Positions 42,122 through 44,593 of a stretch of DNA of 46,232 bases are shown piece after piece. Position 1 is the first letter of the stretch; every line of letters begins with the position of its first letter. Both the position numbers and the translations under genes were made by a program. The stretch comes from a virus (lineage: Duplodnaviria; Heunggongvirae; Uroviricota; Caudoviricetes). Below the pieces are notes generated by a model that was not told where the DNA came from, ran no database searches, and was given only the letters and a program-made list of their open reading frames with translations. The stretch lies in the IMG/VR virus record IMGVR_UViG_2778261384_000001. The stretch is one strand, 5' to 3'.

Positions 42122-44593
42122 ATGAGTAAAGTCTTTATTTGCGCCGCCATTCCGGACGAACAGGCAATAAAGGAAGAAGGTGCCGTCGCTGTAGCCACTG
42201 CCATTGAAGCCGGTGATGAACGTCGCGCCCGCGCAAAATTTCACTGGCAATTCCTGGAACATTATCCGGCTGCTCAGGACTGCGCTTATAAATTTCTTGT
42301 TTGCGAGGATAAACCCGGTATACCCCGCCCTGCCCTCGATTCCTGGGATGCTGAATATATGCAGGAAAACCGCTGGGATGAGGCGTCTGCTTCCTTTGTC
42401 CCGGTCGAGACTGAATCCGATCCGATGAACGTCACTTTTGACAACCTAGCCCCTGAAGTACAGAACGCTGTCATGGTTAAGTTCGACACATGTGAAAACA
42501 TCACTGTTGATATGGTGATTAGCGCACAGGAATTGTTGCAGGAAGACATGGCAACATTCGACGGCCATATCGTTGAAGCGTTGATGAAAATGCCAGAAGT
42601 TAACGCTATGTATCCGGAGCTTAAGCTGCATGCCATCGGGTGGGTTAAGCATAAATGTAAGCCTGGTGCCAAATGGCCCGAAATTCAGGCAGAGATGCGC
42701 ATCTGGAAAAAACGTCGCGAAGGTGAACGCAAGGAAGCCGGAAAATACACGTCTGTTGTTGATCTCGCCCGCGCCAGAGCCAATCAACAGCACACTGAAA
42801 ATTCAACAGGAAAAATCAACCCGGTCATTGCTGCCATTCATCGCGAATACAAGCAGACATGGAAAACACTGGATGACGAACTGGCCTACGCTCTCTGGCC
42901 TGGTGATGTGGATGCCGGAAACATTGACGGCAGCATCCATCGCTGGGCAAAAAATGAAGTTATCGACAACGACCGCGAAGACTGGAAGCGTATCTCGGCA
43001 TCAATGCGCAAACAGCCTGATGCCCTTCGCTACGACCGCCAGACTATTTTTGGCCTTGTCCGTGAACGTCCGATCGACATTCACAAAGACCCTGTGGCAC
43101 TGAACAAATACATTACTGAATACCTGACTACAAAGGGCGTGTTTGAAGATGAAGGAACAAATCAGAGCGCAACTGATACTCTCTCGTCGCCAGTACCAGA
43201 AACTGATGCAGTGGAAACGGCAATTCCAGACAACGAAAAAACCGAATGCAAAGTGGAAGTCGAACCATCTGTAGAACGTGAGGGGCCGTTCTACTTCCTC
43301 TTCACCGACAAGGATGGCGAAAAATACGGTCGCGCAAATAAACTTTCTGGTCTGGATAAGGCGCTGTCTGCTGGGGCTACTGAAATCACGAAAGAAGAAT
43401 ATTTCGCCCGCAAAAACGGTACATACTCAGGTTCACAACAAAATACTGGTGCATCTGACACGACCGCACAACCAGGGTCAGTAAAAGTTACCGCTGACGA
43501 AGTAAACAAAATTATGCAGGCAGCCAATATCAGCCAGCCTGACGCCGATGAACTGCTTGCAGTATCACGTGGTGAATTTGTTGAAGGGATTAGCGACCCG
43601 AATGATCCGAAATGGATTAAGGGGATCCAGACCCGCGATTCTGTGAACCAGAACCAGCAAGAAACGGAACAGAACGACCAGAAAGCGGAACAAAACAGCC
43701 CAAATACGCAACAAAACGAGCCAGAAACGAAACAACCTGAACCAGTAGTGCAACAGGAACCGGAAAAGATCTGCACCGCCTGCGGTCAGAGCGGTGGCGG
43801 CAACTGCCCTGATTGTGGTGCGGTGATGGGTGACGCAACATACCAGGAAATATTCGATGGAGAGAATCAGCCTGAAGTTCAGGAAAATGATCCGGAGGAA
43901 ATGGAAGGCACTGCGCATCAGCACAAGGAGAACACTGGCAGCAATCAGCATCATGCCAGCGATAGTGAAACTGGCGAGGCGTCAGATCCCTTAATTAAGG
44001 CAAACGGTCATCATAATCTCACATCCACCAGCAGAGCGGGGATTCATCTGATGATCGACCTTGAAACCATGGGAAAAAATCCCGATGCCCCGATTATCTC
44101 AATAGGTGCAATATTTTTCGATCCGCAAACCGGAGATATGGGACCGGAATTTAGTAAGACTATCGATCTGGAAACTGCTGGCGGAGTCATTGATCGGGAC
44201 ACCATTAAATGGTGGCTTAAACAATCACGCGAAGCGCAATCTGCCATTATGACCGATGAAATCCCGTTAGATGATGCACTGTTACAATTGCGGGAATTTA
44301 TCGACGAAAACTCCGGTGAATTTTTTGTTCATGTCTGGGGAAATGGAGCCAACTTCGACAACACGATTTTGCGCCGTTCATACGAACGGCAGGGGATCCC
44401 CTGCCCGTGGCGTTACTACAACGATCGCGATGTACGCACAATCGTTGAGCTGGGGAAAGCCATAGACTTCGATGCCAGAACGGCTATTCCATTCGAAGGT
44501 GAGCGCCATAATGCACTTGATGACGCCCGTTACCAGGCAAAATACGTTTCAGCTATCTGGCAAAAACTGATCCCGAGTCAGGCTGATTCTTAA
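42122..44593 (+). CDS. large prophage protein (823 aa) with C-terminal DEDDh 3'-5' exonuclease domain, central zinc ribbon and Q/E-rich linker; full-length counterpart of YdfE
   Basis: Exo motifs MIDLETMG, WGNGANFDNTIL, HNALDDARY; CTACGQSGGGNCPDCG; TGAGG RBS. Confidence 0.8.
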   Translation: MSKVFICAAIPDEQAIKEEGAVAVATAIEAGDERRARAKFHWQFLEHYPAAQDCAYKFLVCEDKPGIPRPALDSWDAEYMQENRWDEASASFVPVETESDPMNVTFDNLAPEVQNAVMVKFDTCENITVDMVISAQELLQEDMATFDGHIVEALMKMPEVNAMYPELKLHAIGWVKHKCKPGAKWPEIQAEMRIWKKRREGERKEAGKYTSVVDLARARANQQHTENSTGKINPVIAAIHREYKQTWKTLDDELAYALWPGDVDAGNIDGSIHRWAKNEVIDNDREDWKRISASMRKQPDALRYDRQTIFGLVRERPIDIHKDPVALNKYITEYLTTKGVFEDEGTNQSATDTLSSPVPETDAVETAIPDNEKTECKVEVEPSVEREGPFYFLFTDKDGEKYGRANKLSGLDKALSAGATEITKEEYFARKNGTYSGSQQNTGASDTTAQPGSVKVTADEVNKIMQAANISQPDADELLAVSRGEFVEGISDPNDPKWIKGIQTRDSVNQNQQETEQNDQKAEQNSPNTQQNEPETKQPEPVVQQEPEKICTACGQSGGGNCPDCGAVMGDATYQEIFDGENQPEVQENDPEEMEGTAHQHKENTGSNQHHASDSETGEASDPLIKANGHHNLTSTSRAGIHLMIDLETMGKNPDAPIISIGAIFFDPQTGDMGPEFSKTIDLETAGGVIDRDTIKWWLKQSREAQSAIMTDEIPLDDALLQLREFIDENSGEFFVHVWGNGANFDNTILRRSYERQGIPCPWRYYNDRDVRTIVELGKAIDFDARTAIPFEGERHNALDDARYQAKYVSAIWQKLIPSQADS

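Follow-up and report, generated by a model that had tools for sequence, protein, structure and literature searches.

In a 46,232-nucleotide stretch of viral DNA (IMG/VR record IMGVR_UViG_2778261384_000001, Caudoviricetes; this whole stretch is called the window below), we identified the gene at 42122..44593 as one predicted to encode the full-length form of the YdfE family, an 823-amino-acid (aa) protein that joins a RecE-like scaffold to a C-terminal DEDDh exonuclease head. We hold this molecular identity with considerable confidence. As an explanation of the whole, we favor as moderately probable a modular early protein with a 3'–5' head acting on DNA, mounted on a RecE scaffold and encoded by a phage that depends on the RecBCD enzyme of its host; the biological role within that explanation, the processing of 3' ends in a RecBCD-reliant phage, is put forward tentatively.

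The first-pass annotation, made from the letters alone, had placed the open reading frame (ORF) exactly where the program-made ORF list of the window has it, on the + strand with an ATG start, and its product is covered over the full length by a match to PHROG 2082. An identical copy (100%) in Escherichia coli strain 1190 is labeled "exonuclease," and the gene is 99.8% identical to that of mEp460_ev081, a functional temperate phage from infant feces (PMC10448788). A BLASTP comparison with RecE (exonuclease VIII; Rac prophage of K-12, 866 aa) gave an E value of 1e-61 over query residues 262–625, and the alignment stops at query residue 625 and RecE residue 591, coinciding with the start of the RecE nuclease domain PF12684. 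Positions 270–603 (of 877) of the NCBIfam RecE profile match aa 245–626, and hhalign, given the N-terminal alignments of YdfE and RecE, returned a probability of 97.1% (E = 5.6e-11). The block containing a zinc ribbon and a linker is ~75–80% identical to aa 453–591 of K-12 RecE (~150 aa), and the DNA of gene nucleotides 1453–1874 is 82–83% identical to Rac recE. By these alignments, homology to the N-terminal region of RecE extends over the whole noncatalytic part of the protein (aa 1 to ~630). The first-pass annotation had described the N-terminal region as one of unknown function; its kinship with the noncatalytic part of RecE, which the alignments indicate, was not visible to that reader. 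In a review, the function of the RecE noncatalytic region is itself given as unknown (PMC11611040).

Beyond the homology boundary, the two proteins differ. Neither a Pfam scan nor phmmer with the RecE nuclease domain, which does match K-12 RecE and other relatives, found a PD-(D/E)XK domain in the 823-aa protein. Its C terminus had been assigned by the first-pass annotation to the DEDDh exonucleases on the basis of three motifs, and the profile hidden Markov model search named there as a check recognized such a family, PF16473 (Rv2179c-like 3'–5' exonuclease), at E = 6.7e-67 and 225 bits against a cut-off of 27, with profile positions 2–177 of 177 covered by aa 642–813. The catalytic residues D646, E648 (in IDLET), D746 (NFD), H796, and D801 (HNALDD) are in register with D7/E9/D119/H186/D191 of T4 DexA. 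They are also conserved among homologs, the lack of which had been named there as a refutation: all are kept in 11 heads, down to 52% identity, one fragmentary sequence excepted. The head matches PHROG 255 at E = 2.6e-79, the label that T4 dexA also bears, and a sequence search of the PDB returned 8KEL (E = 5.6e-6) and 8KEN (E = 5.1e-5) and no other chain at E ≤ 1; the former is T4 DexA and the latter its S87A/D90A mutant (PMC12153337). DexA is a 3'–5' DNA exonuclease that prefers single-stranded DNA (PMC12153337). It shares PF16473, PHROG 255, the five aligned catalytic residues, and the status of a phage early gene with the 823-aa protein, but it is a free-standing dimer/tetramer of 227 aa with extra loops and no scaffold, and it differs in its loop regions and in S87 and W152, where the 823-aa protein has P715 and Y766. 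The head is 24–29% identical to it. We thus place the head in the DexA family, as a predicted enzyme lacking the full signature of EcD (see below), and its substrate is probably DNA rather than RNA. From the DEDDh class, we infer 3'–5' polarity, opposite to that of the exonucleases of two-component recombinases. The PD-(D/E)XK 5'–3' nuclease of RecE is thus, by domain content, replaced at the homology boundary by a head of DexA/EcD type, in what amounts to a head swap.

To place this exchange among related proteins, we collected relatives of the nonnuclease part (aa 1–640) from 1.84 billion representative proteins clustered at 50%, obtaining only 247 with E ≤ 1e-3, and mapped the modules of the query and of RecE onto the long ones. 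All four combinations of N-terminal type and head type occur: YdfE-type N termini are joined to a DEDDh head (the 823-aa protein, P0007, P0121, and P0122) or to a RecE-type nuclease (P0132, P0196, and P0225), and RecE-type N termini to a DEDDh head (P0128, P0137, P0140, P0246, and phage vB_EcoS-689R5) or to the RecE nuclease (RecE itself and others). The locus L013 is especially close, its scaffold modules being 86–94% identical to those of the 823-aa protein, yet its head is a RecE-like nuclease. The heads differ in their company as well. A RecT-family gene lies immediately downstream in all three PD-(D/E)XK-head loci (Rac, L013, and L016; the 275-aa neighbor in the latter two matches Pfam RecT at E = 2e-36) and a RecT-family match was found in none of the nine DEDDh-head loci, where xis-int follow directly in five and a small DUF4224-type ORF and then int in two. 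These data also bear on the reading implied by records that call the protein "exodeoxyribonuclease VIII" or "exonuclease VIII, ds DNA exonuclease," namely that it is a true RecE orthologue and the 5'–3' resection half of a RecET-type recombinase. The two do share a homologous noncatalytic region throughout and the same slot in the lambdoid early-left operon; but RecE ends in the 5'–3' double-stranded DNA exonuclease PF12684 and is followed by RecT, whereas the 823-aa protein ends in a DEDDh domain, of the opposite polarity class, and is followed by xis-int, with no RecT-like gene downstream or elsewhere in the window. Its score against the NCBIfam RecE equivalog NF007259 is 275.6 bits, below the cut-off of 1269, and the PD-(D/E)XK domain is missing. 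The domain content effectively refutes orthology, which we regard as virtually certain to be wrong.

The same relatives include a third head of ~280 aa (head3), without a Pfam family, on YdfE- or RecE-type scaffolds. An example is P0139 (L014/L015, 6001–8370), with relatives P0129, P0134, P0152, P0167, P0184, P0186, P0188, P0217, and P0239; they share the invariant motif KKSLTDAxKKxLSxLGFxADV, show subthreshold matches to Rad52_Rad22, and have a Sipho_Gp157 gene next to them downstream. Free-standing homologues in phages F116 and ZF40 and in Vibrio phages are labeled "exonuclease" or "DNA repair protein." The head may be a Rad52-like annealase, and the proteins carrying it may be the "RecE-2" of a 2025 study (PMC12315714).

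The gene order dicA, ydfA, DicF, dicB, ydfD, 823-aa gene, xis, int is that of the Qin prophage of K-12, and YdfA was recognized by Pfam in the same region. The first-pass annotation had put the gene where lambdoid phages carry exo/bet, and this is borne out: the slot is in the early-left operon, at the position of lambda exo/bet or Rac recE/recT. No annealase gene lies between the 823-aa gene and xis-int, and because no annealase partner was found, the slot does not imply recombination of the Red/RecET type. A K-12 derivative retains gene nucleotides 1–767 only, followed by an IS2 fragment and intQ; K-12 ydfE is the IS2-truncated 5' end of the 823-aa gene, in agreement with the first-pass annotation, which had called it a fragment cut short by an insertion sequence. 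In another strain, an intact copy occupies the same chromosomal site, beside rspB. We found no + strand promoter-like site in 41100–44950, the gap between ydfD and the gene included, where counts were not above the shuffle expectation, and a promoter of its own ahead of the gene was rejected on these grounds. Most simply, the gene is the distal gene of the DicA-repressed early-left (dicBF, pL-like) operon. Since it is the last gene before xis-int in an operon repressed by DicA, as known from work on the K-12 operon, and no internal promoter was found, we infer that the stable lysogen does not make the protein and that its synthesis follows induction or infection.

The kinship with DexA raises the alternative that the protein feeds phage DNA synthesis by breaking down host or broken DNA from 3' ends. 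Host-DNA scavenging is among the documented roles of DexA, in whose family the head falls (PMC12153337), and the inferred expression is early and lytic. On the other hand, scavenging needs neither a 630-aa RecE-type scaffold nor a position in the recombination slot, and this head and recombination proteins occur as alternatives on one scaffold. Temperate lambdoid phages are also not known to degrade the host chromosome, and we consider scavenging distinctly improbable.

A further alternative follows from EcD ("HREX," GenBank HAK9828821.1), a relative of DexA that degrades 5-hydroxymethylcytosine (5hmC) DNA, spares unmodified double-stranded DNA, and, borne on a plasmid, shields E. coli from T4 (PMC12153337). 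For comparison we used an EcD-like 189-aa gene retrieved from viral contigs with the published EcD forward primer, in place of the GenBank record itself; the gene has Ala at residue 78 as published, and its 3' end agrees with the reverse primer except for one base. The gene is found at L038 5679–6269 (−), with others in L020, L025, L035, L036, and L041, and the order at the locus is integrase, C repressor, Cox, DUF4761, EcD, a small ORF, and Dam methylase, as in a P2-like prophage. The idea that EcD is the C-terminal domain of the 823-aa protein was rejected, the primers and the recovered gene pointing to a free-standing protein of ~189 aa in a P2-like prophage. Its place in a P2-like early operon makes the EcD-like gene a phage early gene, therefore, and not a gene of a chromosomal defense island.

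EcD is the closest experimentally tested relative of the head, the EcD-like protein being 41% identical to it over 177 aa, and both are genes of prophage early operons. The head might then selectively degrade hydroxymethylcytosine-containing T-even DNA or other modified DNA and so exclude competing phages, to the protection of the prophage or its host, with the scaffold as an accessory. Such a function would agree with the activity of EcD on 5hmC DNA and its protection against T4 (PMC12153337), as well as with D784, which is an acidic residue aligned with DexA D169 and conserved in 10 of 11 heads, although the segment is gapped and of low identity. A benefit to the host would also fit both the purifying selection on the gene and its retention in intact form, frequently as multiple copies, by roughly two thirds of the complete E. 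coli genomes. DicB, encoded in the same operon, is reported to protect against phages. Other residues argue differently. The Trp proposed for reading 5hmC, which EcD keeps, is replaced by Tyr766, and across heads the position of DexA W152 is Y in seven, C in two, R in one, and W in one; in DexA, this Trp is required for activity on T4 DNA (PMC12153337). The Asp that forms the DexA tetramer, D90, is lost in EcD, where it is Ala78 (PMC12153337), but is retained as Asp718 in the 823-aa protein and is D in 10 heads and E in one. EcD is free-standing, and the EcD-like gene is itself an early gene of a P2-like prophage outside any defense island. Expression of the 823-aa protein in a lysogen is doubtful, since the lytic operon is under repressor control and the gene shows no separate promoter-like site, and exclusion would leave unexplained both the RecE scaffold and the swapping of heads with RecE/RecT. 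We judge it unlikely.

An action on RNA was also considered, in which the head would trim the 3' ends of operon transcripts such as DicF or of RNA-phage genomes, in the manner of the ISG20-like TONDO exonucleases. PF16473 takes its name from Rv2179c, a 3'–5' exoribonuclease of Mycobacterium tuberculosis, and DicF lies on the same transcript as the 823-aa gene. Rv2179c itself acts on RNA and is free-standing and no phage gene. However, it was absent from the PDB sequence matches at E ≤ 1, of which T4 DexA and its mutant were the sole ones, and the nearest relatives with a tested activity are DNA enzymes. The match of the head to RNase_T, which we take to be the Pfam family that includes ISG20, reached 22.4 bits, just short of the cut-off (24), whereas PF16473 matches far more strongly. 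Despite the truncation of its ydfE, K-12 makes functional DicF. Defense against MS2 and Q-beta is described for DEDDh exonucleases of prophages that bear auxiliary domains (PMC13344964), but the TONDO candidates, for which the ISG20 clade was defined by CDD cd06127, were drawn from matches of <500 aa and described as distinct from other DEDDh defense domains (PMC13344964). We regard an RNA substrate of this kind as very improbable.

The reading that we favor, a DNA 3'–5' head on a RecE scaffold in a RecBCD-dependent phage, is linked to RecBCD by Chi sites. The window contains 8 Chi octamers in comparison with 1.6 expected, a number reached by 0 of 100 shuffles, and mEp460_ev081 and phage Tritos contain 9 and 11, each above all 300 shuffles. 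Of the eight in the window, six lie on the strand that is read rightward in the virion map, and toward the right end several lie close together. Nothing in the whole window has the coding potential of a RecT-, RecE-nuclease-, or head3-like protein, and no annealase was found when the remaining ORFs of the early and nin regions were scanned with Pfam. The mEp460_ev081 and Tritos records have no gene annotated as an annealase or as Gam. Because no annealase follows the gene, none was detected in the phage, no Gam is annotated, and the genome is rich in Chi, we do not read the protein as part of a Red/RecET-type strand-annealing recombinase. According to a recent study, the lambdoid phages of its panel that have no Rec module are rich in Chi and their growth is aided by RecBCD (Zheng, Casjens, Davidson, Amundsen, and Smith, Genome Res 2025; PMC12315714). 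Its type phage LLS has CI and Cro proteins closest to those of an mEp460 phage, and DnaQ-like 3'-to-5' nucleases, sporadic ones "very near int," are noted there in lambdoid early-left operons with no role assigned. The 823-aa gene fits both these near-int nucleases and the RecE-related proteins without the RecE nuclease ("RecE-2"), and the phage that carries it fits the class that lacks a Rec module and is rich in Chi. The study does not take the analysis of these genes further, and its main text states neither that a RecE scaffold lies under a DnaQ-type head nor that heads are exchanged in step with RecT.

In the mechanism that we propose, a RecE-family scaffold carries a DEDDh head with an intact active site in place of the 5'–3' exonuclease, and the protein would be synthesized from the dicBF operon on induction or infection. 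By analogy with DexA, the head would remove nucleotides from DNA 3' ends, probably favoring single strands, while the scaffold would bring it to DNA ends or to a partner, which is presumably its task in RecE too. The outcome would be processing of 3' ends of phage or host DNA in a phage reliant on host RecBCD–Chi–RecA. For example, 3' tails might be trimmed to the near-blunt ends that RecBCD needs. In E. coli genetics, host ExoI, ExoX, and SbcCD trim 3' tails to near-blunt ends before RecBCD loading, and the proposed trimming would resemble theirs. ExoI (SbcB) and ExoX share the DnaQ/DEDDh superfamily and the polarity of the head but are chromosomal housekeeping enzymes without a RecE-type scaffold.

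Several observations weigh against this role. The evidence for Chi enrichment comes from three closely related phages; in a fourth carrier, PPompW, the gene is frameshifted and no more than 4 Chi sites were counted. Our sequence screen covered RecT-family annealases, with Erf, Red-beta, and Sak4 judged by annotation and partial Pfam scans. Substrate and strand preference are extrapolated from relatives 24–41% identical, in a family named for a mycobacterial exoribonuclease. The targeting role of the scaffold is conjecture, and a structure comparison of the scaffold fold matched nothing informative. The gene is dispensable to the host, as its repeated inactivation in K-12, Shigella, and PPompW indicates. 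The recent study adds that 3'–5' single-strand exonucleases usually inhibit recombination and that the sporadic DnaQ-type genes near int are often in genomes with a separate Rec module (PMC12315714); because of this co-occurrence, the link of the DEDDh head to a RecBCD-dependent lifestyle may not be general. The first-pass annotation had supposed the full-length protein to be little studied, and rightly so: in the literature searched, 16 papers name ydfE, each in passing, and no functional study of the protein was found.

One Chi site of the window lies within the gene, at the junction of scaffold and head (Table 1). A Chi site at this junction is present in all eight DEDDh-head genes examined, whatever their N-terminal type (the window, L003, L006, L007, L008, L009, L044, and L045), and absent from four genes with other heads (recE, L013, L016, and the head3 gene); its orientation is that of most other Chi sites of the phage. 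The junction Chi could favor the exchange of heads, or it may just be a passenger of the head module. A broader reading would make the RecE-family scaffold a delivery platform for interchangeable DNA-end heads, the head marking the recombination strategy of the phage. A PD-(D/E)XK 5'–3' exonuclease would go with RecT, and the third head, perhaps a Rad52-like annealase, would be another choice; the DEDDh version would be the dedicated end-processing factor of Chi-rich lambdoid phages without a recombinase of their own, trimming 3' tails for RecBCD to load and arrive at the Chi sites of the phage, and the junction Chi would help the exchange of heads. We offer this as speculation and think it rather unlikely to hold in full; if true, it would provide a handle on the RecE N-terminal region, which improves linear–linear recombineering.

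The domain layout of the protein is given in Table 1. AlphaFold2 modeled aa 1–345 confidently (predicted local distance difference test [pLDDT] 89) as three subdomains, and because of this confident model, we take the region to be folded; the third of these, the "mid" domain, was found in most family members. The variable module aa 346–470 is seen again in some relatives and shows the lowest identity between Escherichia copies (65–70%), with ratios of nonsynonymous to synonymous substitution rates (dN/dS) of 0.34–0.38. The CxxC...CxxC ribbon and the low-complexity Q/N/E-rich linker of the first-pass annotation are both present. The former has the form C551-x2-C554-x7-C562-x2-C565, its cysteines being kept in 16–19 of 20 relatives, K-12 RecE among these, and the Pfam zinc-ribbon match of the 823-aa protein was not significant (DZR, E = 0.13); in the latter, aa ~500–640, the residues Q/N/E/D/S/T/P/G/K make up 68–82%. 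Two recent families named for the K-12 fragment, YdfE_N (PF27430) and YdfE_C (PF27432), fall in the noncatalytic part according to precomputed annotation of homologues 90–96% identical. Across all five modules, dN/dS against three diverged Escherichia copies was 0.06–0.48; because it is below 0.5 in every module, the gene is constrained and no chance ORF.

Table 1. Coordinates of the gene, its modules, and neighboring features in the window
Feature	Coordinates	Strand	Basis
Whole ORF, YdfE-family protein	42122..44593	+	ORF list, PHROG 2082
N-terminal scaffold, aa 1-205 (predicted alpha/beta subdomain ~1-100, helical subdomain ~105-205)	42122..42736	+	
"Mid" helical subdomain, aa 245-345, common to RecE aa ~278-360	42854..43156	+	AlphaFold2 pLDDT 89-97, BLASTP vs. 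RecE, NCBIfam RecE profile positions 270-367
Variable region, aa 346-470, acidic/S/T-rich, small conserved segment ~385-433	43157..43531	+	Composition
RecE-shared block, aa 471-630: conserved SRGEFVEGISDPNDPKWIKGIQTRD motif, Q/N/E-rich linker, zinc ribbon, acidic tail	43532..44011	+	
CxxC-x7-CxxC zinc ribbon	43772..43816	+	Residue positions
Chi site (GCTGGTGG) at scaffold/head junction, codons ~635-637, peptide TSTS	44025..44032	-	
Predicted DEDDh 3'-5' exonuclease head, aa 642-813, PF16473, DexA/EcD type	44045..44560	+	Pfam, PHROG 255, PDB 8KEL
Chi positions in the window	21760, 29615, 33598, 33650, 34183, 34240, 35689, 44025		
DicA-like repressor	39860-40267		Pfam
DicF small RNA, upstream, same operon	41427..41478	+	Rfam RF00039, 72.5 bits
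dicB	41653-41841	+	Pfam DicB, E = 1e-39
ydfD	41838-42029	+	Pfam DUF1482, E = 2e-25
xis	44666-44917	+	Pfam DUF1233 excisionase
int	44937 to window end (46232)	+	ORF list, tblastn map

The gene is among the commonest prophage genes in E. coli, and its public names contradict each other. We found DNA matches to it in 4,785 of 5,426 complete E. coli genomes (~88%), with at least 80% of the gene covered in 3,534 of the 5,426 and a median of two places per genome (maximum 10). Each of the best 120 full-length protein matches was an E. coli copy with an identity of 90% or more, and a search of one genome per species turned up no close full-length relative outside Escherichia/Shigella (eight loci, all Escherichia/Shigella). 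Frameshifts were seen in Shigella flexneri (L010) and in PPompW prophages (PPompW_EH1846, L048), and insertions of IS2, IS1203, or IS1F break the gene in E. coli strains, the K-12 lineage being represented by L001, L011, and L012. Intact copies are under purifying selection despite the repeated inactivation. Besides "exodeoxyribonuclease VIII," "exonuclease VIII, ds DNA exonuclease," and "exonuclease," the names in use include "3'-5' exonuclease," "3'-5' exoribonuclease," "3'-5' exoribonuclease domain-containing protein," and "Exodeoxyribonuclease encoded by cryptic prophage CP-933P." The names "exodeoxyribonuclease VIII" and "3'-5' exoribonuclease" are probably wrong, the exonuclease VIII names because they conflict with the domain content and the exoribonuclease label, which is probably misleading, because the closest characterized relatives, T4 DexA and EcD, are DNA exonucleases. 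Care is needed before DexA-like genes in bacterial genomes are taken for chromosomal defense genes, since the 823-aa gene and the EcD-like gene are both prophage early genes.

Parts of this picture are already known: the domain content is in Pfam and PHROGs, and DnaQ-type nucleases near int are in print since 2025 (PMC12315714). The placement of the head on a complete RecE-homologous scaffold, the combinatorial exchange of heads, and the tracking of RecT by that exchange seem not to have been set out in the literature searched. To specialists this will be neat but unsurprising phage mosaicism, with nothing mechanistically unprecedented. It nevertheless offers a natural experiment on the N-terminal ~590 residues of RecE, whose full-length form underlies linear–linear recombineering and direct cloning, and a candidate phage-encoded factor in Chi-rich lambdoid phages dependent on host RecBCD.

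Some other features of the window are recorded here. The interval from ydfA to DicF, occupied in K-12 by ydfB and ydfC, holds a 205-aa ORF without a Pfam match (40549–41166, +) that contains a CPICG motif, with a 106-aa ORF on the opposite strand. In the nin region, a 444-aa ORF with an FRG domain (36060–37394, +; Pfam E = 2.8e-22) is on the strand opposite to its neighbors and lies in a stretch of low GC content (~37%); it looks like a moron, possibly one with an accessory or defense function, and its mEp460 and Tritos homologues carry the label hypothetical. A Pin-type serine invertase (Resolvase and HTH_7; 2620–3210, +) lies beside genes for the tail fiber and tail-fiber assembly (3308–3883 and 3883–6849, −), suggesting invertible tail-fiber (host-range) switching as in phage LLS. 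An IS009 RNA match (Rfam RF02111) is at 3342–3540. A sok antitoxin RNA (hok/sok type; 35253–35427) and two cspA-type thermoregulator leaders (28411–28796 and 31307–31699) were found, all on the − strand, and the leaders precede cold-shock-protein genes in the late and nin regions.

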